Positions 5,538 through 54,741 of a stretch of DNA of 64,000 nt are shown here, piece after piece. Position 1 is the stretch's first letter. Each line of letters begins with the position of its first letter. Position numbers and translations under genes: made by a program. Origin of the DNA: an uncultured Candidatus Saccharibacteria bacterium (lineage in GTDB: Bacteria; Patescibacteriota; Minisyncoccia; Phycocordibacterales; JACNGX01); the NCBI GenBank assembly GCA_964621395.1, contig CAZULS010000001.1:245106-309105 (forward strand). The letters are read 5' to 3'. A model generated the notes under the pieces. It ran no database searches and was not told the origin of the DNA. It worked only from the letters and a program-made list of their open reading frames with translations.

Positions 5538-5636
5538 GTTGTGTTTGATAGAGTAAAGGAATATGAAAGCAAAAACGCGGCGACCAAAGGTCGCCACGTT
5601 TTTTTTGGGCAGTGTGCTCTCTAGAACAAATATGTT

Positions 5637-5712
5637 GTCATCCCGCACTTGATGCGGGATCTAAACGTTAAGAAACAATTCTCTCGAGATCCCGCATCAA
5701 GTGCGGGATGAC
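5637..5712. repeat. Hairpin-unit pair (gtcatcccgcacttgatgcgggatc ... gatcccgcatcaagtgcgggatgac), family 1 short form
   Basis: Two 25-nt palindromic units in inverted orientation, separated by 25 nt. The same unit recurs at more than 20 intergenic sites, for example 15504..15529, 15561..15586 and 61088..61220. Confidence 0.7.
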
Positions 5713-5800
5713 AAGATGTGTCTTTTTACCGTTAACTTTTTTTAATCTCCTAATATTTTAATTTTCTTTTTTGTTTGTTCTTCTTTTTTATTCTCCTACT

Positions 5801-5833: not shown

Positions 5834-5967
5834 GTTCATCGTTCCTGTTATCAACAGTTCGTAAAAAATTTTTGTAGCACGCATGATATGATTAAGATAC
5901 AAAATTTTATTTTTCGTTTTCAATTTTTTATTTTTCTTTTTACCGTTAATCGTTTATTGTTTTTTAT

Positions 5968-10455: not shown

Positions 10456-10784
10456 GGTATTCTTTTTAGGGTTGTGCAAGACTGCTCTTTTTCTACCAAT
10501 TTTGAGATAAAAAAGCAAGGGGAGTGAACGAAGACTTACTCACTTTATTGTCATCCCGCACTTGATGCGGGATCTTCTCGAATAGTACAAAAAACTTTAG
10601 ATTCCCGTTCAAGCTGGGAATGACAGGGGAATAAATGATGTGCAACAAAGTCAGATTCGTATGTTCGTACACATTCGTACTTCGTACCCATTTCAGGAAA
10701 TAAGCCCTATAAGCTATCAGCTAAAAGCTACAAGCCAGATATGATATAATATCAGTGTTTTAATCATTACATTATTAAACCTGT

Positions 10785-11795: not shown

Positions 11796-11939
11796 AAATA
11801 CGAAAAACGAAATATGAAATATGTATAAGCGGCGCGGGGCTTTCGCCCCGCGCCGCTTTTCTTTTCGTACCTTCTTTCTTTGTCATTCCGGACTTGATCC
11901 GGAATCTTCGACAGGTTGTTTTCGAAGGCTGTTTGGGGA

Positions 11940-12070
11940 GATCCCGCATCACCAGAGCTCCACTTTCACCAATATCATTTGCAGTAAAACATCTTTTGTC
12001 CCCTCTCCTACCGTCTACGATTTCTTAATATATTCAGTGAAAGTCGAGCTCGGCAGGAGTGCGGGATGAC
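11940..12070. repeat. MITE-like element, family 1
   Basis: Same termini and core as 1748..1877. Preceded by a solo hairpin unit gtcattccggacttgatccggaatc (11882..11906). Confidence 0.7.
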
Positions 12071-12107
12071 ACCATATCTTTACTTATACAAAAAAGTATC
12101 GTAAGAT

Positions 12108-12284
12108 ATGGACATGGAACTCTATAGTTACAAAGTCATTATTGAGCCGGAGGAGGACGGCGGATACCACGGATCTGTGCCCTTGCTCAAGGGTGTGCAT
12201 GTGTGTGCCGACACGATTGATGACACAAAAGACGATTTGAAAGAAGCGATTCGATGTCATATTCAGGGGCTTTCGATTGCATAG
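12108..12284 (+). CDS. HicB-like (UPF0150) antitoxin-family small protein
   Basis: 58-aa ORF below the track cut-off: MDMELYSYKVIIEPEEDGGYHGSVPLLKGVHVCADTIDDTKDDLKEAIRCHIQGLSIA. The pattern Y-x-V-I-E-x-E-E-D-G-G-Y, P-L-L-K-G-V, and G-x-T-I-D-E/D-A is the HicB/UPF0150 signature. It sits between two family-1 MITEs. Confidence 0.45.
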   Translation: MDMELYSYKVIIEPEEDGGYHGSVPLLKGVHVCADTIDDTKDDLKEAIRCHIQGLSIA

Positions 12285-12468: not shown

Positions 12469-12514
12469 ATTTCATTTTATGAAGCGGCGCGGCTATGCCG
12501 CGCCGCTTCATATA

Positions 12515-12553
12515 TTAATCTCCTAACATATTAATTTCCTAATCTCCTGACGT
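12515..12553 (+). promoter_or_regulatory. Conserved 5' module (taatctcctaacatattaatttcctaatctcct-N5-ATG)
   Basis: Same about 40-nt sequence immediately 5' of obg, gap (19268..19313), rpiB (20722..20764), ORF 41725 (41683..41724) and, diverged, the csaA-like gene (23555..23620) and rpe. Confidence 0.5.
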
Positions 12554-13516
12554 ATGTCTTTTATCGACGAATACCAGTTTAATGCAAAAGCAGGGAAGGG
12601 CGGCGACGGTGTCGTTCGTTGGTTGCATATGAAAGGAAAAGAATTTGGCGGTCCTGCAGGTGGCGACGGCGGCAAAGGTGGCGACGTGTATATTCGTGGT
12701 GTGCGCGATGTGGCGCTTCTTGCTAAGTATCGCAGTAAGAATGAATTTATCGCTGAACATGGGGAGAGCGGTGGTGGCAAAAAAATGAAAGGAAAAAATG
12801 GAGACGATCTCTATATCGATTTGCCTATCGGTTCGCTCGTCACCAATACCGATACGTATGAGACGTTTGAGATTATGGAAGAAGGAGAGAGTCATTTGGT
12901 TCTTGCCGGAGGTGAGGGTGGTTTGGGCAATGATCGTTTCAAAAGTTCACGAAATATCCGTCCGGAAGAATCCACGCCCGGGCAAGTTGGGCAGGAAGGA
13001 CATTTCTCCGTAGAGCTTCGTCTTATTGCTGATATCGGCTTGGTGGGCATGCCCAATGCCGGAAAGTCGTCGCTCTTGAATGCGCTTACCAAAGCAGAAG
13101 CGAAAATCGGCGCGTATCCTTTCACTACGCTTGAGCCGAATCTCGGCGTGCTCTACGGACGCGTGATTGCCGATATTCCCGGCCTCATCGAAGGTGCGTC
13201 AGAAGGGAAGGGTGTAGGGCACAAATTTCTTCGCCATGTGAGCCGCACACGCATGCTTGTGCATTGTGTCTCGTGTGAACACGAGAATGTGAAAGAAGCG
13301 TATGAAACGATTCGCGCGGAGCTCGAAGCGCACGGTGACGGGCTCTCAGAAAAGAGTGAAATGATCCTTCTCACGAAGACCGATATGTGCACGTCGGAAG
13401 AGGTGCAAGCAAAAAAAGAAGCACTTGCGACATACGGCAAACGTGTGGAAGACGTGACCGTCCTTGATGATGACATGGTGAAGCGGATAGGGGAAATCTT
13501 TGTTGGGAATGCCTAA
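12554..13516 (+). CDS. obg: GTPase Obg/CgtA (short form, no C-terminal OCT/TGS domain)
   Basis: 320 aa. N-terminal Gly-rich Obg fold (AGKGGDGVVRW, GGDGGKGGDV). G domain with GMPNAGKSS (G1) and DIPGLIEGA (G3). Confidence 0.85.
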   Translation: MSFIDEYQFNAKAGKGGDGVVRWLHMKGKEFGGPAGGDGGKGGDVYIRGVRDVALLAKYRSKNEFIAEHGESGGGKKMKGKNGDDLYIDLPIGSLVTNTDTYETFEIMEEGESHLVLAGGEGGLGNDRFKSSRNIRPEESTPGQVGQEGHFSVELRLIADIGLVGMPNAGKSSLLNALTKAEAKIGAYPFTTLEPNLGVLYGRVIADIPGLIEGASEGKGVGHKFLRHVSRTRMLVHCVSCEHENVKEAYETIRAELEAHGDGLSEKSEMILLTKTDMCTSEEVQAKKEALATYGKRVEDVTVLDDDMVKRIGEIFVGNA

Positions 13517-14154: not shown

Positions 14155-15030
14155 ATGAAACAATTTCCTGAAGCGAAGGATGTTGCCATTGTCTACGACG
14201 CTGATTGTCCTGATGGATTTGGCGGGGCGTGGGCGGCGTGGAAGATATTTGGTGATGATGCACTGTATATCCCCGGGCATCATCAAGAGGAACCGACAGA
14301 TGAACTTTTCGGCAAGCATGTATATTTTATTGATTTTTGTTATGAGAAAGAGAGAATCGTTGCGCTCCGTCCGAATGTGGAGAGTATGACACTCATCGAT
14401 CATCATAAGTCACGTGCCGATATGGTGGAGATGAAAGAATTTGACGATACACTTTTTACAATCGAAAATTCAGGCGCGGTCCTTGCATGGCGATATTTTC
14501 ATGGTGAAGAAAAAGTCCCCGACATTCTCCTCCACATTGAGGATTTGGATTTATGGAATTGGGAGCTTGCCGACTCCGCAGAAGTGACGTCAATGCTTTC
14601 AACATACCCGTTTAGTTTTTTGGTGTGGGAAGATATTATTTCAGCGTTTGAAAAAGGAGGAACACTCAAAGAGCGATATATGGCAGAAGGCGCAGCTATT
14701 GTGCGAAAGCGTGATATGAATGTGGAGCGTGTGGTGGATGATGCAGAAGAGGTTGAATTTGAAGGAATTAAATGTCTGCTCGCAAATTCTCGTGAAAGTG
14801 TGTCGCATGTTGGGCATGCACTGGTAAAAGAAATGCCTCCCATTGCAATTATTTGGTCTCGACGCGACCAGCAGCTTATCTGTTCGCTTCGCAGCGATGG
14901 CTCGGTGGACGTCTCCGAGCTTGCCGCAAAGTATGGTGGGGGAGGACATGCGGTAGCAGCAGCATTCCGTATCCACGATCCCGATTTTACGAAACTTCAT
15001 GAGATGTTTAAAGCGAACGATAAACGATAA
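14155..15030 (+). CDS. DHH/DHHA1 family phosphoesterase (NrnA-like nanoRNase/pAp phosphatase)
   Basis: 291 aa; DHH motif (TLIDHHKS) and C-terminal DHHA1 GGGH motif (KYGGGGHAVAAAF). Confidence 0.65.
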   Translation: MKQFPEAKDVAIVYDADCPDGFGGAWAAWKIFGDDALYIPGHHQEEPTDELFGKHVYFIDFCYEKERIVALRPNVESMTLIDHHKSRADMVEMKEFDDTLFTIENSGAVLAWRYFHGEEKVPDILLHIEDLDLWNWELADSAEVTSMLSTYPFSFLVWEDIISAFEKGGTLKERYMAEGAAIVRKRDMNVERVVDDAEEVEFEGIKCLLANSRESVSHVGHALVKEMPPIAIIWSRRDQQLICSLRSDGSVDVSELAAKYGGGGHAVAAAFRIHDPDFTKLHEMFKANDKR

Positions 15031-15043
15031 ACTTTTGAACGAT

Positions 15044-15799: not shown

Positions 15800-17215
15800 A
15801 TGTCATATATTCCCGTTATCGGTCTTGAGATTCACGCTGAGCTTCATACAAACACGAAGATGTTTTGTTCGTGTAAGAATGATCCTGAAGAAACACGTCC
15901 GAATGTGAATGTGTGCCCGGTGTGTATGGCGCATCCGGGGACGCTTCCCGTTATCAATAAAAAAGCGGTGGAACATGTGCTTCGCGTTGGTTCAGCACTA
16001 GGGGGCGATTTGGCGTGGGATTACACCGAATTTGATCGTAAAAATTATTTCTATCCGGATATTCCAAAAGGATATCAAATCAGCCAATATGCGTATCCGC
16101 TTGTACGGGGAGGATCGCTTGCCGGCGTGGATATTACTCGTGTGCATCTCGAAGAAGACACCGCCACATCAAAGCACGATATGAGCGAGGATTCGCTGAT
16201 GGATTTTAATCGTGGAGGCGTGCCTCTTATGGAGCTTGTCACCGAGCCGGTGATTGCCGATGCTGAGACCGCACTTGCCTTTGCGAAAGAGCTTCGCTTG
16301 CTTCTGCGTACTCTTGGAGCAAGTGAGGCAAATATGGAAAAAGGACAGATGCGCGTAGAGGCGAATATCTCCGTATACAAAGAAGGGGAGGAACGACTTT
16401 CAGGCACAAAGGTGGAAGTGAAAAACCTCAATTCCTTTCGCGTGGTGGGCAGAGCGATTGAATACGAGATCAAGCGTCAGATTGCCGCGCGTGAAGCAGG
16501 TGAGGAAATTGTGCAAGAGACACGCGGTTGGGATGAGAATAAAGGAGAGACATTTTCCCAGCGCAAGAAAGAATCATCACATGATTATCGATATTTCCCG
16601 GATCCGGATTTGCCTAAGCTTGTGCTGAAAGAGATGCAGGGTGAGTTTGATCTCGAACTTCCGGAGCTTCCGTGGGAAAAGCGAGAGCGATACATGAGTG
16701 CATATGGCATTAAGGCGGAAGATGCCGAAAGTTATGTAAACTCCGACGAGATGGGAATGTATTTTGAGAAGGTGGCAGAGCTTCTCGGGGGAGATGCCGA
16801 AAAAGTAAAACTCGCATCCAATTACATCACGTCTGATATGGTGGGATTGAATGCTCAGCGAGATACTTCCATTTTTGTAGATATTCTCCCTGAGCATATT
16901 GCCGAGCTGGTGGAGATGGCACACGGCGGGGAAATCTCTTCGCGCGGTGCCAAAGACATTCTCGCACATATGAGTGAAAAAGGAGGGAGTCCGCAAAGTA
17001 TTGCTGAGAGCGAAGGGTTGTTTCAAAAGAGTGATGAGGGGGAGCTTGGCGAGATTGTGGAGGCAATTATTGCTCGAGAAGAAAAGGCGGTTGCCGAATA
17101 TCGCGCCGGCAAAGTTCAATCAATGCAGTATTTGGTAGGACAGGGCATGAGAGAAACGAAAGGTTCGGCAAACCCAGGCGTGCTCAAGAAGATGTTTGAG
17201 GAGAAATTGGGTTAG
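15800..17215 (+). CDS. gatB: Asp/Glu-tRNA(Asn/Gln) amidotransferase subunit B
   Basis: Internal ATG MSYIPVIGLEIHAELHT (canonical GatB N-terminus). The track ORF begins with a TTG inside the upstream hairpin. C-terminal YqeY-like domain present. Confidence 0.9.
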   Translation: MSYIPVIGLEIHAELHTNTKMFCSCKNDPEETRPNVNVCPVCMAHPGTLPVINKKAVEHVLRVGSALGGDLAWDYTEFDRKNYFYPDIPKGYQISQYAYPLVRGGSLAGVDITRVHLEEDTATSKHDMSEDSLMDFNRGGVPLMELVTEPVIADAETALAFAKELRLLLRTLGASEANMEKGQMRVEANISVYKEGEERLSGTKVEVKNLNSFRVVGRAIEYEIKRQIAAREAGEEIVQETRGWDENKGETFSQRKKESSHDYRYFPDPDLPKLVLKEMQGEFDLELPELPWEKRERYMSAYGIKAEDAESYVNSDEMGMYFEKVAELLGGDAEKVKLASNYITSDMVGLNAQRDTSIFVDILPEHIAELVEMAHGGEISSRGAKDILAHMSEKGGSPQSIAESEGLFQKSDEGELGEIVEAIIAREEKAVAEYRAGKVQSMQYLVGQGMRETKGSANPGVLKKMFEEKLG

Positions 17216-17242
17216 AGATTAGAAGTTAGGAATTAGGAACAC

Positions 17243-19102: not shown

Positions 19103-19313
19103 GAGGTCATCCTGTTTTTTCGGTTAAAAGGTGTTACGTCCTCTCCTTTTGTACCATAAACATGTGGAAAATCAAAATGTGGTATACTGTGTATAAGAGC
19201 TCTTCGGGTTTCTGGTACTGTATGATAAGATTCCGAATCAAGTCCGGAATGACACTCATTGGCTTTTAGGTATTTTTAATTTCCTAATCATTAACCTCCT
19301 AATCTCCTGTACT

Positions 19314-20354
19314 ATGTCTTCACGTATTGCCATCAATGGTTTTGGTCGTATCGGCCGGGCATTTTTCAAGGCCGCGTTTTCTCGCCCTGAGATTGATATT
19401 GTCGCTGTCAACGATCTGGGTGATCCCGATAATCTTGCCTATCTTCTCACATACGACACCGCATATGGGAGAAGTCGGTTTGATGTGCAGGTAGAGGGTG
19501 ACACACTTGTCGTTTCGGGTGGTGAAGAAGAAAAAGAAATTGCGCTCATCTCTGAGCGAGATCCTGCGGCATTGCCGTGGGATGATATGGACATTGATAT
19601 CGTGGTTGAGTGTACGGGCGTGTTTGCCGGCTATGAAAAATCAAAACCACACCTCGAGGCCGGGGCCAAGCGCGTGGTGATTTCCGCTCCGGTAAAAGAT
19701 ACTCCTGAAGAGGCGGGAGTGAGCGGCGCGACGATTATTCCGGGAGTCAATGACGAAGAGTTGGAAACGGCACAAATCTCATCCAATGCATCATGCACAA
19801 CCAATGCGGCAACACCGCTTATCGAAATTCTCCATGAAGGGCTCGGTATTGAAAAAGCGGCGCTCAATACGGTGCATGGATACACCTCAACACAGCGCAC
19901 GGTGGATCTTCCGAATCCAAAAGATTTCAGACGCGGGCGTGCGGCGGCGCAGAACATCATTCCCACAAGCACCGGAGCGGCAATTGCCACAACAAAGGTG
20001 GTGCCGGCTCTCGAAGGAGCCTTCGATGGCTTGGCAATGCGCGTGCCGGTGATTGTTGGCTCTATTGTCGATATCACATTTGTCGCATCGCGGGAGACGA
20101 GTGTGGAAGAAGTGAATGATATTCTCCGAACAGCGGCGGGAGAGGAACGCTGGAAGAGCACACTTTCAACCGTGGAAGAGCCGATTGTGTCGTCTGATAT
20201 CATTGGCTGCCCGTATGCATCGCTTGCTGATTTGTCACTCACCCAGGTGATTGGCGGTACGCTCGTGAAAGTGCTTGCGTGGTATGATAACGAAACCGGC
20301 TATGCCAATGCGCTGACCGAACACGTCATTGCAAGCGCACAATACATAGAATAA
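19314..20354 (+). CDS. gap: Glyceraldehyde-3-phosphate dehydrogenase
   Basis: 346 aa; NGFGRIGR Rossmann motif; active site SNASCTTN. Preceded by the conserved 5' module. Confidence 0.9.
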   Translation: MSSRIAINGFGRIGRAFFKAAFSRPEIDIVAVNDLGDPDNLAYLLTYDTAYGRSRFDVQVEGDTLVVSGGEEEKEIALISERDPAALPWDDMDIDIVVECTGVFAGYEKSKPHLEAGAKRVVISAPVKDTPEEAGVSGATIIPGVNDEELETAQISSNASCTTNAATPLIEILHEGLGIEKAALNTVHGYTSTQRTVDLPNPKDFRRGRAAAQNIIPTSTGAAIATTKVVPALEGAFDGLAMRVPVIVGSIVDITFVASRETSVEEVNDILRTAAGEERWKSTLSTVEEPIVSSDIIGCPYASLADLSLTQVIGGTLVKVLAWYDNETGYANALTEHVIASAQYIE

Positions 20355-20487
20355 AAATTCCAAATAACAAAAAACAAATTTCAAATAATACCAAATATAC
20401 AAGGACTCCGAATATACAAATCATTACAAAAATACAAATGGTACAAATATGTACGAATATGAATTTGTGTTTAAAAATAAATTGTTT

Positions 20488-20619
20488 GTCATTCTGAACT
20501 CCTGCCGAGCTTCACTTTCACTGATTACAGAAGAAAACAATAGACGATAGAAGAAAGAACAGAAAGTATGTGGATGAAAAATGCTATTGGTGAAAGTGGG
20601 GCTCTGGTGATTCAGAATC
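20488..20619. repeat. MITE-like element, family 1 variant (gtcattctgaac...gattcagaatc termini)
   Basis: Part of a composite gap-rpiB spacer (20355..20764): tacaaat/tacgaa-rich stretch, this MITE, a solo hairpin unit (20634..20659), a TTCGTA x4 array, then the 5' module. An about 85% identical composite fills rpiB-rpe (21233..21598). Confidence 0.65.
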
Positions 20620-20764
20620 TAGGAGACGACGAAGATTCCGCATCAAGTGCGGAATGACAATGAAAGTGGATAATGTACTAAAAGTCAGATTCGTATGTTC
20701 GTACACGTTCGTAGTTCGTAACCTTTGTAATCTCCTAACATTTAATTTCCTAATCTCCTCAATT

Positions 20765-21232
20765 ATGCTTATTCACATCGCATCAGATCACGCAGGACTT
20801 GCGCTCAAAGAACATCTTCAGGGCGTGCTTGAGTCTCTCGGGCATGAGGTTGTTGATTATGGTCCGAACGAGTATGACAAAGACGATGACTATCCTGATT
20901 TTGTCCGTCCGGCGGCGGAAGCGGTGGGGGAGGCATATTGCTCAGGACAAACAGACGTGCGCGGTATTGTCATTGGCGGCTCCGGGCAAGGCGAAGCGGT
21001 TGTGGCTAATCGCGTGAAGGGTGTTCGTGCAGCAGTGTGGTATGGTGGCGATATGCACTTGGTTATGCTTTCTCGAGAGCATAATGATGCAAATGTTCTG
21101 TCGCTCGGAGCGCGATTCATGGATAAAGGGATTGCCGAAGAAGTGGTGAAGATGTGGCTTGATACACCGTTTTCCAATGACGAGCGCCATATTCGGAGGA
21201 TTAAAAAAATCGATAAAACGAATTACGAATAA
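20765..21232 (+). CDS. rpiB: Ribose-5-phosphate isomerase B
   Basis: Internal ATG MLIHIASDHAG (RpiB/LacAB family) of ORF 20654..21232. The upstream part of the track ORF is translated repeat sequence. Confidence 0.85.
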   Translation: MLIHIASDHAGLALKEHLQGVLESLGHEVVDYGPNEYDKDDDYPDFVRPAAEAVGEAYCSGQTDVRGIVIGGSGQGEAVVANRVKGVRAAVWYGGDMHLVMLSREHNDANVLSLGARFMDKGIAEEVVKMWLDTPFSNDERHIRRIKKIDKTNYE

Positions 21233-21598
21233 GTACGAATATACGAACGGTACAAATCTCTACAAATATGAATTTACGTTTAAAAGCTCATTATTTGTCA
21301 TTCTGAACTCCTGCCGAGCCCCACTTTCACTGGACACATCAAGAAATCATGAACGATAGAAGAAAAAATGAAAGATATGTTACTGCAAATGATATTGGTG
21401 AAAGTGGGGCTCTGGTGATTCAGAATCTAGAAAACGATGGAGATTCCGCATCACCAAGCACCATTTTCACTAAAGTGAAAAAAGTGCTCGGCACAGAGTG
21501 CGGAATGACAATGAAAGTGGATGATGTGCTAAAAGTCAGATTCGTATGTTCGTACTCATTCGTACTTCGTACCCGATACCATTCTTAATTCTCTTCTC

Positions 21599-22297
21599 AT
21601 GCTTGAAATTATCCCTGCCATTATTCCGGAAAGCGTAGAGGATCTCTCCGAAAAGCTTTCTCGTGTTGCCGGTCTTGCATCTGTTGTGCAAATTGATTTT
21701 GTCGATGGTGTGTTTGTGCCCGATGCCGCTCCTTCGTGGCCGTTTCATGACACAAAAGAAGAAGGGGTGTTCAGCACGCTCGGTACAGAGGAAGAAGGTT
21801 TGCCTTTCTGGGACACTTTTTTCTTTGAAGCTGACCTCATGGTAAAAGAGCCCGAGCATATCATCGACGATATTATCGGTGCCGGATTTTCTCGCGTTAT
21901 TCTCCATGCCGGGAGCTCCGGGAAGATTGCCGAAATCTTCGATACACTGCGATCGTATGACATTGAGACAGGTCTTGCTCTTTCTGTCGGCGACGATATA
22001 GAACAATATGCATCGCTTCTTGAAAAAGCGGATGTCATTCAAGTGATGGGCATTGAGCACATCGGCAGGCAAGGAGAAAGGCTGTCTCCGGACGCACTTC
22101 TTCTCTTATCCACTTTGCGGGGGCAGTATCCCGAGCGTATAATAAGTGTCGATGGAGGCGTGAATGTGGAGAACGCGCCCATTCTCGTTGGCGAGGGAGC
22201 CGACCGTCTTGTCTCAGGTTCCGCACTTTTCGGTAGTGATGATATTGCCGGAGTGCTGGCAAAATTTTATTCTCTGGAAGAACCTGTCTCAAGTTAA
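21599..22297 (+). CDS. rpe: Ribulose-phosphate 3-epimerase-like TIM-barrel protein
   Basis: 232 aa. QIDFVDGVFVP resembles the Rpe HLDVMDGHFVPN metal site. The last 19 nt including the stop lie inside a family-2 MITE. Confidence 0.6.
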   Translation: MLEIIPAIIPESVEDLSEKLSRVAGLASVVQIDFVDGVFVPDAAPSWPFHDTKEEGVFSTLGTEEEGLPFWDTFFFEADLMVKEPEHIIDDIIGAGFSRVILHAGSSGKIAEIFDTLRSYDIETGLALSVGDDIEQYASLLEKADVIQVMGIEHIGRQGERLSPDALLLLSTLRGQYPERIISVDGGVNVENAPILVGEGADRLVSGSALFGSDDIAGVLAKFYSLEEPVSS

Positions 22298-22473
22298 ATG
22301 GCTTATTCTCGTTCCGAGCATTCGAGCGAGTCGAAGTCTCGGAGACTGAAGCGTACTGTCTGTACGATGAAGTTGAGAGACAAGACGCAGCCGGATGCTC
22401 GGTGCGAGAATTGCCAAGCGCACACGAAGTGAGGTGAATATTATGTGGGCGTTTTAACGTGAGACAGGTTCTC
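22279..22473. repeat. MITE-like element, family 2 (about 195 nt)
   Basis: aagaacctgtctcaagttaaatggcttattctcg...gagaattgccaagcg...ttaacgtgagacaggttctcag. Copies at 29928..30125, 32835..32938 (short form), 36680..36877, 43062..43259 and 44526..44724. Confidence 0.7.
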
Positions 22474-22493
22474 AGAAGAACGGATTCAGATAT

Positions 22494-23357
22494 ATGAAAC
22501 ACTTAAGCGATGGCGATGTCCATACAATCATTCAGAAAGCAAATACCATCCGCAGAAGCGTGATTGAAATGCTTCTTGAAGCCGGATCGGGGCACACCGC
22601 CGGACCGCTTGGTATGGCGGATATTTTCGCGCTTCTGTATTTTCATGTCCTTCGACACCGCCCCGATGAGCCGGAGTGGTCAGCACGCGACCGACTGATT
22701 CTTTCCAACGGGCACATTTGTCCGGTGCTCTACGCTGCAATGGCACATGCGGGATATTTTCCGGTATCGGAATTGAAGAGCTTGAGAAAGTTTGGCACAC
22801 GACTCCAGGGACACCCGCATCGTGAATGGCTACCGGGTATTGAAACAAGCTCCGGTCCGCTGGGCTCCGGACTTTCACAAGCAGTCGGGATGGCGCTTGC
22901 TGAGCGCATGGACCGCGGAGTTTCGAGTGATAAATATTTTTATGTCATCCTTGGTGACGGAGAACTTGATGCCGGTCAGGTATGGGAAGCGATGATGCAG
23001 GCAGGGAAGGAACGCCTTTCCAATATTATTGCCATTGTCGACCGCAACAATATCCAAATCGACGGCTTTACCTGGGATGTGATGCCACTTGAGCCGTTGT
23101 TTGAAAAATGGGAGAGCTTTAATTGGCACGTGCAAGAAGTGGACGGACACAATATTGAAGCAATGAATGAAGCGATTGGTGAGGCGCAGTCGGCATATGG
23201 ACAGCCGTCGGTGATTATTGCCCACACGATTCCGGGCAAAGGGGTGCAAGAGTTTGAGCGCGATTTTTCATGGCATGGCAAACCGCCCCGCGCAGAAGAA
23301 GCAAAGCGGGCACTGGAAGAGCTGCGCACATTGGGAGGGAAGATACATTGCGATTAG
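22494..23357 (+). CDS. Transketolase, N-terminal (TPP-binding) subunit
   Basis: 287 aa; GDGE TPP-binding signature (VILGDGELDAGQVWEA). Split-Tkt arrangement with the C-terminal subunit at 24460. Confidence 0.85.
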   Translation: MKHLSDGDVHTIIQKANTIRRSVIEMLLEAGSGHTAGPLGMADIFALLYFHVLRHRPDEPEWSARDRLILSNGHICPVLYAAMAHAGYFPVSELKSLRKFGTRLQGHPHREWLPGIETSSGPLGSGLSQAVGMALAERMDRGVSSDKYFYVILGDGELDAGQVWEAMMQAGKERLSNIIAIVDRNNIQIDGFTWDVMPLEPLFEKWESFNWHVQEVDGHNIEAMNEAIGEAQSAYGQPSVIIAHTIPGKGVQEFERDFSWHGKPPRAEEAKRALEELRTLGGKIHCD

Positions 23358-23620
23358 CAATGAAATGCACAAATCACAAGCATCAAATAACAAATAATAC
23401 TCAAATTCGAAATATCAAAATCTATGAGTTGTCATTCCGGGCTTGACCCGGAATCCAGGAAACACACGAAGATTCCGGATCAAGTCCGGAATGACAATGA
23501 AAGTGGACAATGTGCCAAAAGCTAGATTCGTATGTCCGTACAAATTCGTAGTTCGTAACCTTTTATTCTCCTTATTTACTAACATACTTATCTCCTAACG
23601 TGTGATTTATAATTCTATAT

Positions 23621-24013
23621 ATGACTACCGATACTTCAATAAAAGAACAGAGCGAAGATTCAAAGACAGACGCTTCATCTGCCATCGCCTACGACGATTT
23701 CCTCAAATGTGATATTCGTGTTGGCACTATCGTGAAAGCGGAGCTTTTCCCCGAAGCACGTAAGCCGATGCATAAATTCGAAATTGATTTCGGGGAGGAA
23801 ATTGGCATACGTCGTTCATGCGGACAAATCACCCAAAATTATGAACCGGAAGATTTGGTGGGGAAACAGGTGGTAGGCGTGGTGAATTTTCCGGAGAAGC
23901 AAATTGGTCCGTATACGTCGCAGGCTCTTACTCTTGGTTTTCGTGATGCGGAGGATGGCGTGGTCCTTATTTCACCTGAGAAGGAAGTGCCCAACGGTGA
24001 AAGGCTTTTTTAA
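23621..24013 (+). CDS. tRNA-binding domain protein (CsaA/EMAP-II-like)
   Basis: 130 aa; KCDIRVGTIVKAE...HKFEIDFGEE, the Myf/CsaA OB-fold. Confidence 0.6.
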   Translation: MTTDTSIKEQSEDSKTDASSAIAYDDFLKCDIRVGTIVKAELFPEARKPMHKFEIDFGEEIGIRRSCGQITQNYEPEDLVGKQVVGVVNFPEKQIGPYTSQALTLGFRDAEDGVVLISPEKEVPNGERLF

Positions 24014-24014
24014 T

Positions 24015-24455
24015 ATGATAGATCATTTTGACATTCACAGTCCTGAAATACAGTCACGCCTTATTGTTGAGAACAATCTCGCTTTTGCTTTTCCCACACA
24101 TACCCCTATCGTACCCGGACATGTCCTTATCTGTCCGAAGCGCCCTGCGAAAACATGGGATGAATTAGAGGGAGAAGAGATTGAAGCAATATTTGATTTA
24201 CGAAAGAAATTAAAGCAAGCCATGAAAGAAGTTTTTGATGCTGAGGGATTTAATTATGCGTGGAATGAAGAGAAAATCGGTGGACAAAGCGTGCCCCATG
24301 TTCATCTTCATATGTTGCCAAGGAAAGAGGGTGATGCCGGTATTGTAGAATACGAGCCAAGAAAATTTTTGTACCGTCCCGGTGTAAGAGATGTTTCTCC
24401 CAAAGAGGAACTTTCCGATGTTTCCCGATTATTACGAGACGCGATAATACAATAA
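24015..24455 (+). CDS. HIT family hydrolase
   Basis: Internal ATG MIDHFDIH. Histidine triad HVHLHMLPR. Confidence 0.75.
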   Translation: MIDHFDIHSPEIQSRLIVENNLAFAFPTHTPIVPGHVLICPKRPAKTWDELEGEEIEAIFDLRKKLKQAMKEVFDAEGFNYAWNEEKIGGQSVPHVHLHMLPRKEGDAGIVEYEPRKFLYRPGVRDVSPKEELSDVSRLLRDAIIQ

Positions 24456-24459
24456 CAAT

Positions 24460-25449
24460 ATGCCCATTATTTCTTCCGCACACTTAAATAAAAAAGTATT
24501 TGACGCCGACGTGGAGCACATACCGATTCGTAATGGGTATGGCGAAGGACTTGTTTTGGCTGGGAAGCGTGATGCGCGTGTGGTGGCATTGTGTGCTGAT
24601 CTCACGAGCTCCACGCGCACTGTTCGTTTTGCAAAGGAATTTCCCGATCGTTTTGTGGAGATGGGTATTGGTGAGCAGTCGATGGCATCGGTGGCTTCCG
24701 GTATGGCGGCAATGGGGAAGATTCCGTTTATTGCTTCGTATGCAATGTTTTCTCCCGGTCGCAATTGGGAGCAGATTCGCACCACCGTGTGCTACAACGA
24801 TGCAAACGTGAAGATTGCCGGAGCACATGCCGGCGTGTCTGTGGGTCCTGATGGCGGCACCCATCAGGCGATTGAAGATATTGCACTCACGCGAGTAATC
24901 CCGCGCATGAGTGTGCTCGTGCCCTGCGACGTGCATGAAGCAAAAAGAGCAACACTTGCCGCAGCTGCCCACGACGGACCGGTATACATTCGCTTGGCAC
25001 GTGAGAAAACACCGGTTGTCACCACTGAAGAGACACCATTTGAAATTGGTAAGGCACAACTCTTCTTTGAACCGAAGAAAGGTGTGAAAAAAGAAATTGG
25101 TCTCATTGCAAGCGGTTCACTTATGCACAATGCGCTTATGGCGGCAAAAGAATTGGAGAGTGAGGGTATTGGAGTGTCTGTCTTAAACCTTGCCACCGTG
25201 AAGCCCTTGGACGAAGAAGGAGTGCTCGCATTCGCAAAGAAACACAAGGTTATCGTGACCGTTGAAGAACATCAAATTGCCGGTGGTGTCGGCTCGGCAA
25301 TTGCGGAATTCCTTTCCGAAAAGCATCCTATGCCCGTGCACCGTATTGGCGTGAAAGATCAGTTTGGACAATCAGGCACACCGGAAGAATTGATTGCGCA
25401 TTATGGTATGGATGTGGAAGGGATAAAGCAGACAATACGACTTATATGA
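24460..25449 (+). CDS. Transketolase, C-terminal (pyrimidine-binding + C-terminal) subunit
   Basis: 329 aa; Tkt pyrimidine-binding and C-terminal domains. Its stop overlaps the next gene's start (ATGA). Confidence 0.85.
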   Translation: MPIISSAHLNKKVFDADVEHIPIRNGYGEGLVLAGKRDARVVALCADLTSSTRTVRFAKEFPDRFVEMGIGEQSMASVASGMAAMGKIPFIASYAMFSPGRNWEQIRTTVCYNDANVKIAGAHAGVSVGPDGGTHQAIEDIALTRVIPRMSVLVPCDVHEAKRATLAAAAHDGPVYIRLAREKTPVVTTEETPFEIGKAQLFFEPKKGVKKEIGLIASGSLMHNALMAAKELESEGIGVSVLNLATVKPLDEEGVLAFAKKHKVIVTVEEHQIAGGVGSAIAEFLSEKHPMPVHRIGVKDQFGQSGTPEELIAHYGMDVEGIKQTIRLI

Positions 25450-26288: not shown

Positions 26289-26401
26289 GAAAAGGAAATT
26301 AAAGAGGAGATTAGGAGATTAAAAAACGATAAACTGTAAACGATGAACGATAAATAAAAAACTTCAAACAAAAAAACAAAAAGGCGCTGCACGCGCCTTT
26401 T

Positions 26402-29923: not shown

Positions 29924-29927
29924 TGTA

Positions 29928-30125
29928 TAGAACTCATCTCATGTTAAACCGCTGGAAACAACACTTTTCACTTCGTTCATATGCTTGGCAATTCTCGCAC
30001 CACATATTCGGCTGCACCTTGTCTCTCAACCGCACCGCACGAACAGTGCGGCACGGTCTCCGAGACATCGGCTCGCTCGAATATTCGGCACGAGAATAAG
30101 CCATTTAATATGAGATGAGTTCTAG
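29928..30125. repeat. MITE-like element, family 2, inserted between the pilN-like and pilO-like genes
   Basis: tagaactcatctcatgttaaa...ccatttaatatgagatgagttctag. Its terminal ATGAGTTCTAG supplies the ATG (30115) of the downstream gene. Confidence 0.7.
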
Positions 30126-30669
30126 TTACACCATGCCATATATTATCTTCACAATTGCACTGCTCGTTGCCGCCGGAGGCGTGTTTTTCGGATTTACCGA
30201 TGAGCGCTACGCGGTGATTCAAAATCTTGAGGAAGAAAAACACGAGCTTGCCCGGGCAGCTGATAAGATGAACGAGCTCAATGAAGTGCGCGATGAGCTT
30301 TTGACACGCCGAGCAGCGTTTTCTGCGCAAGATATTGAACGCCTCGAGAAGGCGCTTCCCGATAATGTCGATAATATTCGTTTAATTAACGATCTGAACG
30401 GTATTGCGTCGCAGTACAATATGTCGGTTCGTGGGGCATCAATATCGTTTGCCACAGACGCTTCCGGCGACATTATTGTCGATGAGGATGCATACGGTGT
30501 TGTGACCGTTGATTTTTCCGTGTCCGGCCCATATCAGACATTTCTCAATTTCCTTGATAAGCTGGAACAGAGCTTGCGCATCGTTGACGTGAGGAGTATT
30601 TCATTTTCTTCCAGCAAAGAAGACTTTTACGATTATCATATTTCCTTACAGACCTACTGGCTTCAGTAA
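30115..30669 (+). CDS. PilO-like membrane protein
   Basis: 184 aa; one N-terminal TM and a coiled coil; operon position. Its first codons (MSSS) are encoded by the MITE terminus. Confidence 0.4.
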   Translation: MSSSYTMPYIIFTIALLVAAGGVFFGFTDERYAVIQNLEEEKHELARAADKMNELNEVRDELLTRRAAFSAQDIERLEKALPDNVDNIRLINDLNGIASQYNMSVRGASISFATDASGDIIVDEDAYGVVTVDFSVSGPYQTFLNFLDKLEQSLRIVDVRSISFSSSKEDFYDYHISLQTYWLQ

Positions 30670-33347: not shown

Positions 33348-33528
33348 CTTTTATCCACAGAGGGTGCTTTTAGGGTATATAAAATGGTATAATGAACCTA
33401 TCCTGTTTATAAAGGTGTTCGGCATATGGTTTGGCGATAAGAGCGCTCTTGTCGTGTCATCGTGTGCTGAACGGTATGTGTGATAAAAACGTACCACTTT
33501 TAACCATTTATTTCTTTTTATTTTCATT

Positions 33529-33978
33529 ATGATGAAACCCAATCGAGGTTTTACCCTCATTGAACTTCTTGTGGTGATCGCAATCATCGGTATCCTTTCT
33601 TCCGTTGTGCTTGCATCACTCAATTCTGCACGTGAGAAATCACGTGACGCACGTCGTATCTCCGACATTAAACAGCTTCAGCTTGCTCTTGAGCTGTACT
33701 TTGACGACAACAGTGCATATCCGTCGGCGACAACATCGGGATTGGCGCCAACATACATTCCGGCGGTTCCGGTTGATCCGTTGGGTGATCCGTACCCGTA
33801 TGCAAACGCGACAACAGGTACTGACGGCTATTGTGTCGGTGCAAACCTTGAAGACACGACTCACAATGCACTACAGACCGATGCGGATGAAACGCAATGT
33901 GACAACTTCGATGGCGAAGATGACTCCGACGGTTGTGGCGGTGAAACAAATGTTGCGTGTTACGACATTCGTGACTAA
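33529..33978 (+). CDS. pilA: Type IV major pilin (PilA-like)
   Basis: MMKPNRGFTLIELLVVIAIIGIL: a class III signal with G-1, F+1 and E+5. 149 aa with C-terminal Cys pairs. Confidence 0.75.
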   Translation: MMKPNRGFTLIELLVVIAIIGILSSVVLASLNSAREKSRDARRISDIKQLQLALELYFDDNSAYPSATTSGLAPTYIPAVPVDPLGDPYPYANATTGTDGYCVGANLEDTTHNALQTDADETQCDNFDGEDDSDGCGGETNVACYDIRD

Positions 33979-36679: not shown

Positions 36680-36877
36680 CTAGAACCAGTCTCACTGAAA
36701 ATGGCTTGTTCTCACGCCCAAACAGCGAGCGAGCCGACGTCGCGGAGACCGTGCCGCACTGCCGTGCGGTGCGGTTGAGCGACAAGGCGCAGCCGCCACG
36801 TGGGCGTGGGAACTGCCAAGCGCAGCTCTTGAATATGTTTCCATTATTTTTCAATGTTTTCAGTGAGACTGGTTCTA
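36680..36877. repeat. MITE-like element, family 2
   Basis: ctagaaccagtctcactgaaaatggcttgttctcacgcc...gggaactgccaagcg...cagtgagactggttcta. It overlaps the 5' part of track ORF 36664 and contains the only in-frame ATG (36835) for the downstream pilin-like gene. Confidence 0.7.
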
Positions 36878-37401
36878 ACAATGTACACAATCGAGGGTTC
36901 GCTATTTTGTTTGCCGTGCTTGTTTCTGGTATTCTCCACACGATTGGTTTGGGTATTTTTAGTATTACCTATAAAGAACTTCTCCTTTCGTCATCTGATC
37001 GCGAATCGCAAGTTGCTTTTTATGCGGCTGATACGGGAACGGAATGTGCACTCTACTGGGATATTCAGCACCCTGATACGCCATATAGTGTATTTGGCCT
37101 TGTGCTATCTCCGGCGACAACAAGTCCTCCAGACGAAAGTAGCCCTATCTTGTGCGGGAATCAGGACGTTATATTAAACGGATACTGGAGTCCGGGAGGG
37201 ATGGCAGCGCCAATTGAGACAACGTTTCGTATTGAGAACATTGGTGGGACGAGTGCATGTGCTGATGTGACGGTTACGAAAGATTATGATTCAGGGGAGG
37301 GAAAGAGGACAACTCAAATTGATTCACGTGGATTTAACACGTGTGACACCAATGCATCACGACGCGCCGAGCGTGGTTTGCGGGTTGAGTATTCGATATA
37401 A
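36835..37401 (+). CDS. Degenerate pilin-like protein
   Basis: MFPLFFNVFSETGSNNVHNRGFAILFAVLVSGILHTIGL: a pilin-like G-F hydrophobic N-terminus lacking E+5. The start codon is inside the MITE. The rest of track ORF 36664 is translated MITE. Confidence 0.35.
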   Translation: MFPLFFNVFSETGSNNVHNRGFAILFAVLVSGILHTIGLGIFSITYKELLLSSSDRESQVAFYAADTGTECALYWDIQHPDTPYSVFGLVLSPATTSPPDESSPILCGNQDVILNGYWSPGGMAAPIETTFRIENIGGTSACADVTVTKDYDSGEGKRTTQIDSRGFNTCDTNASRRAERGLRVEYSI

Positions 37402-39504: not shown

Positions 39505-39698
39505 ATACATTATCACTGTCATTCCCGCCCCCGAGCTGGAATCCTGCTGTAATTGATTCGGAAGATAAGTTAGAAAGAAGCCGCGACACTAAAGGTGCCG
39601 CGACATCTTTTTCTTTTTTACATATTTATATCTGTCATCCAAATTTCCCTCTAAGCTAAAAGCTATCAGCTACAAGCTCTATATGCTATACTACCCCT

Positions 39699-41437: not shown

Positions 41438-41487
41438 TTAAGATGTTGTCATTCCGGCCCCCGAGCCGGAATCCAAAAAATCACGAA

Positions 41488-41618
41488 GATTCCGCATCAC
41501 CAGAGCCCTACTTTCACCAGTATCATTTGCAGCAAAACATTTTTCATTCCTTCTTCTACCGTCTACGATTTCTTAATGTATCTAGTGAAAGTGAGGCTCG
41601 GCAAGAGTACGGAATGAC
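41488..41618. repeat. MITE-like element, family 1
   Basis: gattccgcatcaccagagccctactttcacc...agtgaaagtgaggctcggcaagagtacggaatgaca, followed by the TTCGTA array and the 5' module. Confidence 0.7.
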
Positions 41619-41724
41619 AATAGAAGTGGATAATGTACTAAAGGTCAGATTCGTATGTTCGTACCGATTCGTAGTTCGTAACCTTTTTATTCTCCTAACC
41701 TTTAATTTCCTAATCTCCTGATGT

Positions 41725-42330
41725 ATGGAAGGCCCCTTCATTGATCTTGAATACGTGTTTTACCAAATATATTCATTTGTATTTGGTATTCCTTCTGCAA
41801 CATCGACCGAAAACGCAACGTCCACGGGTCTATTATCGACTATCACCTCTTTTGACCCAAACCCGACATTTATCATTGCAAAAAATGTGATATCGCTTGT
41901 CATATTACTGCTGATTGCGGGCATTGTGTATGTGCTTGTGCGTCTCTGGGAAGTACAAAAAGAAGAAGAGGCGCAATTTGTCTTCGCTGAGCCTGAACAC
42001 GGACATGGAGAAATTAAGAACGAGCAATGGGAGCTCATTGAAGAGCACATCTCGTCAGAGAATACTTCGGATTGGCGTGTGGCAATCCTTGAGGCAGATA
42101 ATATGCTTGAAGACATGCTGGTGCGCATGGGCTACGACGGTGAGAGCATTGCCGATCGCTTGCGTGCGGTAGAACCAAGCGACTTTACTCATATCCAAAG
42201 TGCATGGGAGGCGCATAGAGTGCGTAATCAGATTGCGCATGAAGGAGTGAATTTTGTCGTTACTCAACGTGAAGCCCGCAGAGTGATTGAGCTGTATCGA
42301 AAAGTGTTTGAGGAATTCCACTATATTTAG
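41725..42330 (+). CDS. Hypothetical membrane-anchored protein with HEPN-like R-x4-H motif
   Basis: 201 aa; one TM (ISLVILLLIAGIVYVLV); C-terminal AWEAHRVRNQIAHEG. Confidence 0.35.
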   Translation: MEGPFIDLEYVFYQIYSFVFGIPSATSTENATSTGLLSTITSFDPNPTFIIAKNVISLVILLLIAGIVYVLVRLWEVQKEEEAQFVFAEPEHGHGEIKNEQWELIEEHISSENTSDWRVAILEADNMLEDMLVRMGYDGESIADRLRAVEPSDFTHIQSAWEAHRVRNQIAHEGVNFVVTQREARRVIELYRKVFEEFHYI

Positions 42331-43040: not shown

Positions 43041-43061
43041 TACACCAAAAACCTGGTATGC

Positions 43062-43259: not shown

Positions 43260-43267
43260 TACACCTT

Positions 43268-43344: not shown

Positions 43345-43431
43345 CTCCGCAAAAAAAACTCCTTGAGGAGTTTTTTTACGGAGTGGTGCCGGACAAGCCC
43401 GGCTTACATTACCCTATTCAAACACAAGGTA

Positions 43432-44524: not shown

Positions 44525-44525
44525 T

Positions 44526-44724: not shown

Positions 44725-44739
44725 GTGTCGTTTAGAGCT

Positions 44740-45007: not shown

Positions 45008-45447
45008 CACGAGCATAGCGAGTGAACCAAGACAGAAAGCCCACTGCTGGGCTTTCGTCGGGGTTTGAACGGCGGAGTATGTCTGAGTGGCTTGCCACGA
45101 AGACAGCGAGCCGCGTCCAGCGATACTTATCAGAATACGAGCCCTTGGGCGAAGTATTATGATTAGTAATCGTGGGACAACCCCGGTTGCGGATTGCGAA
45201 TACCTGGAGCAATACGCTTAATAACTCCGGGACAACCCCGGCCCTGTTGTGGCTCACGAGCTCCTCGGACCGAGCACCATCCAAGCACCACTTTCACCAA
45301 CTACTCTATAATTTGTTAAAGAGGAGTTTAAGAATTTCCTTTCCAAAAAGTTGATGATAGGGTGTAATAGTGAAAGTGGTGCTCGGTGGTGCTTGGGAAG
45401 CGAGTGTATTCTTAATTCTTAACTCCTAATTCTTCATTCTAATCATC

Positions 45448-46645: not shown

Positions 46646-46910
46646 CGCCTTTCGTGTTCAGTATTGTCAAAAAAGCGAAGATCCCGCATCAAGTGCGGGA
46701 TGACAGGTACTTTTATTGTTTATTTTCCATTGTTTGTTCGTAGGCATTTTTTGCTTTTTTCGTTTTGGTGTATAATACTCTTACGAACGTACAAATTGTT
46801 ACATATCTACAAATGGTACGAATAATACAAATCCGTTTCTAACGCCAGGTGGTCATTTGTATTATTCGTACCATTTGTAAATTAGTATGTATTCGTAGAT
46901 TTGGAGTCTT

Positions 46911-54732: not shown

Positions 54733-54741
54733 TTATCATCT

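Follow-up and report, generated by a model that had tools for sequence, protein, structure and literature searches.

How ribosomes find internal start codons without Shine-Dalgarno (SD) pairing is poorly understood, and the bacterial lineage considered here is a natural test case. The sequence under study is a 64,000-nucleotide (nt) stretch of contig CAZULS010000001.1 (positions 245,106 to 309,105, referred to as the window), which its RpiB homologues and syntenic contigs place among the Parcubacteria of the Candidate Phyla Radiation (CPR), near Candidatus Yonathbacteria. The window has a GC content of 46% and carries nearly all of its genes on the + strand. Among these are obg, gap, rpiB, rpe, a split transketolase and a gene for a tRNA-binding (CsaA-like) protein, the identities of which were confirmed by Pfam. 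A short sequence module abuts the start codon of several of them, and rpiB (20355-21598) is flanked by two copies, about 350-400 nt each, of a composite repeat.

In this paper we document the anatomy of the module and of related tracts, their composition statistics, their conservation as a class, the promoters upstream of them, the complementarity of the repeat arms beside them and the shuffling of the mosaic in which they lie. The S10 and spc operons of three related lineages (L159, L160 and L161) were compared for the same features, together with an S10 operon of Yonathbacteria (L079) that came from a metagenome scan.

Copies of the module in the window

Four near-identical and two diverged copies of the start-codon-abutting module lie in the window (Table 1). 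Allowing up to two mismatches, the core TTTCCTAATCTCCT is found 9 times, compared with 0.40 matches expected, and none of 100 shuffles reached 9; this count and the coordinates of repeat family D10 confirm the sites listed in an earlier description of this DNA, which was made from the sequence alone (the original prediction). In four of the nine core copies the register is the same, CTCCT-N5-ATG, and TAATCT stands at a distance of exactly 8 nt from the ATG. The other five matches are away from start codons, at 5738 and 63702 and, on the minus strand, at 26305, 26313 and 37406.

The individual copies have features of their own. In the obg copy TAATCT occupies 12540-12545, 8 nt from the ATG, and a TGA lies in frame at -6. 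The G-free run of the rpiB copy extends over 20728-20766, its last position adjoining the G of the ATG. After the diverged copy of the csaA-like gene there is a canonical TATAAT (23608-23613), 7 nt before the ATG at 23621. The product of open reading frame (ORF) 41725 has 201 amino acids and belongs to no Pfam family.

The module as the end of a tandem array

Rather than a discrete operator, the module forms the ATG-proximal end of a degenerate tandem array with a unit of about 8 nt (YYCCTAAY), variants of which include CTCCTAAT, TTTCCTAA, ATACTAAC and TTACTAAC. Tandem Repeats Finder gave it a period of 8/16 nt. Forward tandem repeats of 7-8 nt were found whose ends lie within a few nt of start codons, and no ribosome-binding site accompanies them. 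In length the module copies rank with the longest coding-strand stretches free of G, which means that they contain no AGGAGG, and tracts without G have a low base-pairing potential; in the predicted fold the leader tract is unpaired. Because the spacing at which UAA returns is no multiple of three, stops usually fall in all three frames, as they do in the obg and ORF 41725 copies; the gap and rpiB copies have them in two. CTCCTAA occurs 7 times in intergenic DNA and 0 times in coding DNA, and its reverse complement once, from which it follows that the arrays are co-oriented with the genes. Tracts of this type hold almost no ATG, GTG or TTG; the nearest upstream start triplet is at -59 for obg, -55 for gap and -40 for rpiB, and ORF 41725 has an out-of-frame, overlapping ATG at -4 and its next start triplet at -70.

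Upstream of the gap, rpiB and obg orthologues of relatives at 97%, 82% and 70% RpiB identity we again found ATG-abutting, G-free arrays with a period of about 8 nt. These consist of the units CTCCTAAC, TTACTAAC, ATACTAAC or TTCTTAAT, or are plainly T-rich, and number from 3 to more than 12 units; the end CTAAYCTCCT-N5/6-ATG was present in 7 of 12 aligned upstream regions. To judge from these alignments, the class of array is conserved and its sequence turns over fast.

A metagenome scan with the module pattern returned mostly octamer arrays, (TCCTAATC)n, in unrelated organisms of 34-68% GC, and so showed the module to be of a tandem-repeat type. The informative loci were L079, L045 and L022, in which arrays abut real genes, and arrays also precede the genes for YebC and a CCA-adding enzyme on unrelated metagenome contigs. 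A scan of viral contigs with the module matched only a conserved phage coding region. The array phenomenon may extend beyond CPR bacteria. Arrays of (YTCCTAAY)n abut the ATG of real genes in L029, L045, L047, L108, L114 and other loci of 36-68% GC, including human-gut contigs, and some of the metagenome arrays are paired with inverted arrays upstream.

An array of the same G-free type, preceded by a long hairpin of the nested-element family described below, abuts the mature 5' end of tRNA-Thr (Table 1); such tracts are therefore not limited to start codons. Reverse complements of leader units are seen just after stop codons at 26305-26326 and 17215-17239 (AGGAGATT x2; GAGATTAGAAGTTAGGAATTAGGAA), and could in principle pair with leaders of the CTCCTAAT type.

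Arrays in ribosomal-protein operons

In L079, arrays precede the genes for L3, L4, L2 and S3. At common junctions in three lineages (L3/L4, L23/L2, L22/S3, S17/L14 and S14/S8) the arrays span the whole distance from stop codon to ATG, and one L23/L2 spacer has 0 G in 77 nt. Junctions of 1-35 nt have no array. The 14 array-junction spacers (35-147 nt; 1043 nt in total, with 91 G) contain 0 ATG, GTG or TTG, where 17.1 +/- 3.5 were expected, and 0 of 5000 composition shuffles reached 0 (P < 2e-4). Those parts of the spacers that are more than 40 nt from the ATG likewise have 0 start triplets, against 13.2 expected. Since CTG is present in the spacers, the avoidance is specific to start triplets. 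Over all 45 junctions of L159, L160 and L161, ATG (5) and GTG (2) are about 3-fold rarer than permuted triplets.

When the array class is defined by an ATG-abutting G-free run of at least 24 nt, it comprises 22 of 145 genes. On average their last 30 nt contain 0.7 G and 0.14 start triplets, and their last 40 nt contain 3.4 TAA, compared with 4.1-5.6 G, 0.8-1.3 start triplets and about 1 TAA in other gene classes; the leaderless class with strong promoters has 1.31 start triplets (last 30 nt) and 0.94 TAA (last 40 nt). Stops in all three frames within 48 nt were found for 17/23 array genes and 0/16 leaderless-type genes.

The S10 operon is interrupted between rplB and rpsS in L079 (4286-6052), L159 (11048-12138) and L160 (5796-6860). 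The interrupting genes differ and are unrelated to one another: a GmrSD endonuclease gene, an SDH-protease/NfeD gene and a CNNM/CBS gene. A candidate promoter before L079 rplB, TGATACTAT, was rejected because it falls in the 3' end of the L23 coding sequence.

Initiation signals and promoters

SD-like 4-mers occur at -20 to -4 of 3/49 genes in the window, a number equalled in a control window, and the SD signal is absent in the window. Upstream sequences of the ribosomal-protein genes, read in three related operons, contained no SD-like sequence. Together with the G-free composition of the module, the 3/49 count upholds the earlier statement that the module lacks AGGAGG and that initiation at it is not SD-led. 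For the 3' end of 16S rRNA, a scan of viral contigs gave two non-CPR matches, and a regular-expression search over the fetched loci gave no usable sequence from the lineage. In principle the CUCCU of the leaders might pair with an altered tail of the 16S rRNA.

TAnnnT lies 6-9 nt 5' of the ATG in 21/49 genes. Matches of at least 5/6 to TATAAT precede 10 genes at 6-9 nt from the ATG and 0 genes at 10-16 nt, and many of the ATG-proximal -10 boxes of the window carry a TG extension (Table 1). Since TAnnnT and strong TATAAT matches are both concentrated 6-9 nt before the ATG, leaderless mRNAs are probably the default in this genome, which fits the detection of an anti-SD motif in only 48% of Parcubacteria 16S rRNAs (PMC9297842). 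A generic sigma-70 scan of the window gave 13 sites, with 23 expected. The tRNA genes apparently have -10 boxes too, only 8-10 nt from the mature 5' end; tRNA-Gln at 50758, for one, is preceded by TGCTATTCT.

Extended -10 promoters were found well upstream of three genes that have a tract (Table 1). Four lineages share an unchanged TG-n-TATACT box 75-130 nt upstream of gap, and the leader behind it is variable. The leader of the pilin-like gene (33385..33528) is about 130 nt long, and its last 39 nt (33492-33530) are G-free, into the ATG. The leader of PPDK (pyruvate phosphate dikinase) is about 70 nt long (to 5967); it is T-rich, G-poor and repetitive, and abuts the ATG. With strong promoters this far upstream of gap, the pilin-like gene and PPDK, the tracts would sit in 5' leaders. 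The original prediction had named a module lying in a long untranslated leader as the observation that would speak against it, and the gap promoter, 75-130 nt upstream in four lineages, points to such an arrangement, as read from the sequence and not from mapped starts.

Repeat arms and composite insertions

A TTCGTA x4 array (family D6) precedes four modules, those of rpiB, ORF 41725, the csaA-like gene and rpe, and recurs at 10656 without a module, just as had been described; the obg and gap copies have no such array. The start-to-start spacing of its units is always 8, 10 and 7 nt. The pattern TTCGTANNTTCGTA has 7 matches in the window, compared with 0.28 expected, and TTCGTA is 11-fold enriched in intergenic DNA, with 28 copies versus 14 of its reverse complement. 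Downstream of the solitary array are a CTATAAG array and a TATAAT box, and the array is conserved in the Parcubacteria metagenome-assembled genome NIOZ-UU136 (L011). A scan of genome contigs with GATTCGTATGTTCGTAC gave 15 matches, mostly at chance level; the informative ones were L011, which is orthologous to the 10650 locus, and L003 and L012, which are TTCGTA arrays of CPR bacteria.

The TTCGTA arrays are the 3' arms of inverted repeats, and the TACGAA 5' arms begin either at, or shortly past, the stop codon of the gene upstream or directly behind a promoter. In the RNA fold of the rpiB-rpe spacer the TACGAA and TTCGTA arrays pair (z = -8.6) and the last ~27 nt are free. Arm complementarity was significant in 7/9 spacers, including the tktN-csaA spacer of three relatives with different arm sequences and a minimal 120-nt hairpin upstream of ftsE, at the ends of which (46780/46899) no target-site duplication was obvious by eye. 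One relative has TTCGTA-type arrays directly against the ATG of L3 and that of L18, paired once more with post-stop ACGAA arrays. The left arm at the csaA site is degenerate in the window and intact at the corresponding site in relatives. The two halves of the transketolase, N- and C-terminal, are encoded by separate genes between which the tRNA-binding (CsaA-like) gene is inserted (22494-25449), an arrangement conserved in four lineages, and the tktN-csaA junction has a TACGAA/TTCGTA inverted repeat in L137, L141 and L144 that is degenerate in the window.

Repeat analysis and anatomy also agree with the earlier view that the module is part of a composite repeat. The order of parts is a TACGAA/TACAAA array, a hairpin dyad, a 31-nt linker, TTCGTA x4, the G-free leader and the ATG. 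The dyad has two hairpins, TGTCATYCCG...CGGRATC and GATYCCG...CGGRATGACA, one of which holds a nested hairpin of about 110 nt. At least 15 copies of these hairpins are spread over the window in both orientations (families D4, D7, D11 and D12); the hairpins usually form dyads with TG...CA outer ends (TGTCAT...ATGACA), and some loops carry the nested ~110-nt hairpin (family D1). Further hairpin sites are, for example, 5635-5716, 11880-12075, 23429-23498, 45631-45719 and 61086-61223, and the basal stem covaries. An Rfam search of the window returned only tRNAs above the gathering threshold, and a relaxed search of 20300-23700 and 41400-45600 only sub-threshold matches. A conserved leader peptide encoded through the linker, the TTCGTA array and the module (MTMKVDNVLKVRFVCSY...) was considered and rejected for want of a coding signature: variable sites are distributed 9:7:8 by codon position, and there are 21 synonymous versus 65 non-synonymous codon differences. 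The ORF is therefore treated as incidental.

Between relatives the composite behaves as a mosaic. In the window and in L143/L144 (97% RpiB identity) the gap-rpiB spacer measures 410-418 nt, L137 has one of 86 nt and L141 one of 104 nt, and the composite is present in the window and L144 and absent in L137 and L141. When the window and L144 (97% identical) are compared, the TTCGTA array is identical and the leader behind it is exchanged, the rpiB leader of L144 being of the type that precedes rpe in the window. The nested hairpin of L144 lies in the other hairpin of the dyad and is inverted relative to the window. The exchanged leader and the moved hairpin indicate that the parts shuffle as cassettes, probably by recombination between repeats. 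Terminal inverted repeats, dispersed copies in both orientations and presence or absence between strains are all found, as in a mosaic of miniature inverted-repeat transposable elements (MITEs).

Other repeats and genes of the window

A rod-like repeat of about 200 nt is present in five copies (Table 1), among which 25 of 70 predicted pairs show compensatory changes; its G·U pairs include invariant ones. Two copies immediately precede tRNA genes (tRNA-Met and tRNA-Asp), one of these copies following a TGGTATGCT box, and the repeat has no Rfam match. It is a candidate for a new structured RNA or a hairpin-dependent mobile element. Arrays of 7-nt units are found in other settings as well: those of the CTATAAG type lie directly upstream of -35/-10 boxes, and arrays of AACGATA, ACAAATA and GAAATAC follow stop codons, often before intrinsic terminators. 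A defence-type cluster (52839-56910) holds genes for an AbiEii nucleotidyltransferase (53449-54732) and an AEP-TOTE primase-helicase fusion (54742-56910). A HicB-like ORF of 58 amino acids (12108-12284) has its own leaderless-type box and lies between two hairpin composites upstream of obg.

Table 1. Positions of modules, arrays, promoters and other repeats in the window
Feature	Position	Strand	Remarks
Module, obg	12506..12553	+	Abuts ATG 12554; D10 span 12513-12556; G-free 12506-12548
Module, gap	19271..19313	+	Abuts ATG 19314; D10 span 19273-19316; G-free 19271-19308; without TTCGTA array
Module, rpiB	20724..20764	+	Abuts true ATG 20765; D10 span 20724-20767
Module, ORF 41725	41679..41724	+	Abuts ATG; D10 span 41684-41727
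Diverged module, csaA-like gene	23556..23599	+	D10 span 23561-23604; 61% to reference
Leader, rpe	21572..21598	+	Short, diverged, pyrimidine-rich; abuts ATG 21599
G-free array of ~8-nt period (ATTCTTAA type)	45407..45447	+	Abuts mature 5' end of tRNA-Thr (45448)
Extended -10 promoter, gap (TGGTATACT)	19180..19188	+	~125 nt before ATG
Perfect extended -10, pilin-like gene (TGGTATAAT)	33385-33393	+	~135 nt before ATG 33529
Extended -10, PPDK (TGATATGAT)	5884-5892	+	~75 nt before ATG 5968
Decayed TACAAA/TACGAA array	20397..20468	+	Weaker 5' arm; after G-free tract 20350-20402 behind the gap stop
Hairpin GTCATTCTGAAC...GATTCAGAATC	20488..20619	+	Left half of MITE-like dyad; nested hairpin ~110 nt
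Hairpin GATTCCGCATCAAGTGCGGAATGAC	20634..20658	+	Right half of dyad; terminal ATGACA opens incidental upstream ORF
Linker AATGAAAGTGGATAATGTACTAAAAGTCAGA	20659..20689	+	Conserved, dyad to TTCGTA array; near-identical second copy 21510-21540
TTCGTA x4	20690..20720	+	5' of rpiB module; 3' arm of decayed inverted repeat with 20397-20468
TACGAA/TACAAA array	21217..21255	+	Overlaps rpiB stop 21230-21232; 5' arm of closing helix
Second dyad, rpiB-rpe spacer	21297..21508	+	Hairpin and nested element 21297-21427; hairpin and small insertion 21441-21508
TTCGTA x4	21541..21571	+	5' of rpe; 3' arm of long closing helix with 21217-21255
TTCGTA x4 (one unit TCCGTA)	23527..23557	+	5' of csaA-like gene
TTCGTA x4	41650..41680	+	5' of ORF 41725 module; no left arm
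TTCGTA x4, solitary	10656..10686	+	No module; ~100 nt upstream of 2-hydroxyacid dehydrogenase gene
Minimal TACGAA/TTCGTA hairpin	46780..46899	+	24 perfect core pairs; right after TGTATAAT box; 12 nt before ftsE ATG 46911
TGnTATAAT/TATACT boxes 6-8 nt before ATG	e.g. 14155, 28038, 34088, 37480, 39699, 56920, 57507		Leaderless arrangement
Rod-like repeat, ends AGAACYCATCTCA...TGAGATGRGTTCT	22279-22490, 36680-36890, 43061-43262, 44525-44730	+	~200 nt
Rod-like repeat, further copy	~29925-30135	-	
Other position-fixed 7-nt tandem arrays	1897-1929, 10707-10735, 39653-39678; 15016-15032, 26324-26354, 47605-47630		

Discussion

On balance we lean towards reading the module as an SD-independent translation-initiation leader. 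Tracts of this kind would be the initiation region for genes that stand behind a 5' leader or a long intercistronic spacer, and the other genes would rely on leaderless mRNAs and tightly coupled cistrons. The tract would hold the start codon single-stranded and provide no competing start, and its stops would end upstream reading near the genuine AUG. Ribosomes might be loaded through S1 at a standby site free of structure; alternatively, a ribosome that entered at the 5' end or has just terminated might slide to the first AUG. The TACGAA and TTCGTA arms are predicted to close a compact stem around the MITE-like insertions, leaving the tract free. Transcription of the tracts at every copy, like their part in promoting initiation, is inferred.

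A bolder form of this reading, which we regard as doubtful, makes the tracts ribosome sliding tracks that impose a bacterial 'first-AUG rule' without SD pairing. Ribosomes coming from an upstream stop, an upstream ORF or the 5' end would travel 35-150 nt to the next AUG, and, wherever insertions rich in hairpins stand in between, a closing helix from the stop codon to the edge of the tract would bring stop and start together in a shunt-like manner. Ribosome shunting on the 35S leader of cauliflower mosaic virus is comparable.

Several observations weigh against an initiation leader. The four window copies are recent duplicates, so that their common register does not amount to four independent observations, and the evidence from ribosomal-protein genes comes from relatives, not from the window, and from three operons that are mutually homologous. 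The distance at which TAATCT precedes the ATG in the four copies is the modal -10 distance of this genome. The obg module lies directly behind a GC-rich, terminator-like hairpin; should this hairpin act as a terminator, obg would need a promoter no more than ~45 nt from its ATG. That the module is transcribed at obg, rpiB and ORF 41725 is something that we infer. The array at tRNA-Thr abuts a gene for which translation is irrelevant. In the inverted-repeat arms there are 22 G·U pairs versus 10 A·C mismatches, counts that do not decide between pairing at the RNA and at the DNA level. Finally, reinitiation is lost beyond ~20 nt in E. coli and Haloferax, and the movement of post-termination ribosomes through long intergenic regions is disputed (PMC10666635); given the ~20-nt limit, sliding over 35-147 nt would be unusual.

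Some of these points would be explained if the module were a weak sigma-70-type promoter of leaderless or near-leaderless mRNAs, with TAATCT as the -10 box, a transcription start that coincides with the ATG or precedes it by 1-2 nt, and UP-like or activator sites in the A/T-rich units further upstream and in the TTCGTA arrays. We see in this the chief competing reading, though on balance an unlikely one. Its attraction is that leaderless architecture is the norm here and that TAnnnT is enriched 6-9 nt from the ATG. TAATCT keeps its distance of 8 nt in the four copies as well as at rpiB of L137, the stretch that separates CTCCT from the ATG varies in sequence and is always 5 nt long, TAnnnT is present in every unit variant, and a TG-extended TATTCT appears to drive tRNA-Gln; the terminator-like hairpin before the obg module and the array at the tRNA gene suit a promoter as well. 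As a promoter, however, the module is poor. It matches TATAAT at 3/6 positions and, by reading, has no TG extension and no -35 element (best 2/6), as opposed to the TGnTATAAT or TATACT of true leaderless promoters. Nor is the phase of the box conserved: TAnnnT falls at 6-9 nt in 12/20 related arrays by reading, which is about chance (50%) for an 8-nt repeat. Of the earlier suggestion that TAATCT serves as a -10 box for leaderless transcripts, the distance therefore holds and the promoter quality and phase do not. Arrays of 12 or more units are at odds with such a promoter, and so are the start-codon depletion and three-frame stops, which true leaderless promoters lack and which have no obvious meaning for untranscribed DNA. 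Strong promoters lie far upstream of gap, the pilin-like gene and PPDK, and to suppose a promoter of its own at each of five junctions within one ribosomal-protein operon would not be the most economical explanation.

The mosaic behaviour raises the question of whether the tracts are selfish or neutral repeat DNA, that is, slippage tandem repeats and MITE-like cassettes spread by recombination and tolerated, with start-codon adjacency as a by-product. The intergenic DNA is full of 7-8-nt arrays of many units and of hairpins in both orientations. Between the window and the 97% RpiB relative a leader was swapped and a nested hairpin moved, the gap-rpiB spacer is 410-418 nt in two strains versus 86-104 nt in two others, five of the nine core matches do not abut a start codon, and (TCCTAATC)n octamer arrays are common in unrelated metagenome contigs. 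Such an origin would nevertheless leave unexplained the strict co-orientation of arrays with genes, their presence at equal operon junctions in three lineages and the depletion of start triplets beyond what G content predicts (P < 2e-4). Arm complementarity is kept even though arm sequences differ between lineages, and arrays stand at genes for which high expression is expected (ribosomal proteins, gap, PPDK and the pilin-like gene). A selfish or neutral origin seems to us improbable, more so than a promoter.

The shared operator of the original prediction, taken here as the TTCGTA array and/or the module and supposed to co-regulate glycolysis, the pentose-phosphate pathway and obg, has in its favour that the hexamers are conserved where their spacers vary (L003), that TTCGTA is enriched intergenically and that several array genes belong to sugar metabolism, but it is very improbable, for the obg and gap modules have no TTCGTA arrays, both kinds of array precede ribosomal-protein genes, ftsE, the pilin-like gene and a tRNA gene, and the module's array type also the genes for YebC and the CCA-adding enzyme, neither unit sequence nor array length is conserved at orthologues (rpiB of L137 and L141 included), there is no helical phasing in the TTCGTA spacings of 8, 10 and 7 nt, and the TTCGTA arrays behave as inverted-repeat arms.

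As a class the leaders are discrete and easy to recognise, and they are found between conserved ribosomal-protein cistrons and before genes for which strong expression is expected. Should they indeed promote initiation, they would represent a new type of signal for recruiting ribosomes in a large, uncultured section of the bacterial tree, would improve the annotation of start codons and operons in CPR genomes, and would offer portable SD-independent leaders for expression work. Were they promoters or neutral repeats instead, the intergenic architecture would still be unusually modular and fast-shuffling.

Comparison with known systems

A literature search with the octamer sequence found only unrelated eukaryotic papers. 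The omega leader of tobacco mosaic virus (TMV) and the epsilon sequence of T7 gene 10 are G-poor, SD-independent enhancers, and S1-dependent initiation occurs on unstructured leaders. TMV omega contains 8-nt direct repeats, and such leaders function through their single-strandedness, not through anti-SD pairing. Like these, the tracts described here are G-poor leaders rich in pyrimidines and A; TMV omega and T7 epsilon, however, are single viral leaders in hosts that use SD pairing, whereas here a genome-wide family is found in a host without SD usage.

Mosaic extragenic repeats are known from E. coli (BIME/REP), Neisseria (Correia elements) and pneumococcus (BOX), and some of them, Correia elements for instance, contain promoters or influence the stability of mRNA. 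The composites of the window resemble them in having palindromic units in both orientations, in forming variable intergenic mosaics with other short motifs and, presumably, in being transcribed within operons. They differ in their unrelated sequence, in the TG...CA dyad with a nested mobile hairpin, in the flanks of hexamer arrays and in the G-free leader.

Termination-reinitiation and 70S scanning are models of translational coupling (PMC10666635). Adhin and van Duin (1990) and Yamamoto (2016) reportedly treat such models. They fit the geometry seen here, in which the stop of an upstream gene or upstream ORF is followed by a start-free stretch and the first AUG is the genuine start. The tracts here are 35-147 nt long, far from the ~20 nt beyond which coupling is lost in E. 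coli and Haloferax (PMC10666635), and scanning along them is a proposal.

Direct repeats of the heptamer TAACTGA are found in Beggiatoaceae, some Cyanobacteria and Bacteroidetes (MacGregor 2015, PMC4679880). They end ~1 nt before start codons that lack a ribosome-binding site, and their function is unknown (PMC4679880). The arrays described here share with them a tandem unit of 7-8 nt that contains UAA, a forward orientation, an end within a few nt of start codons, an intergenic position without a canonical ribosome-binding site before unrelated genes, ribosomal-protein genes included, and a proposed translational role. They are set apart by the G-free unit YYCCTAAY, by a CPR host and by degenerate mixtures of units that fill the spacer from stop to start. 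Start-codon depletion and coupling to inverted TACGAA/TTCGTA arms are reported here for our arrays. The TAACTGA repeat is thus the closest published analogue of the arrays, which differ from it in unit, host and properties.

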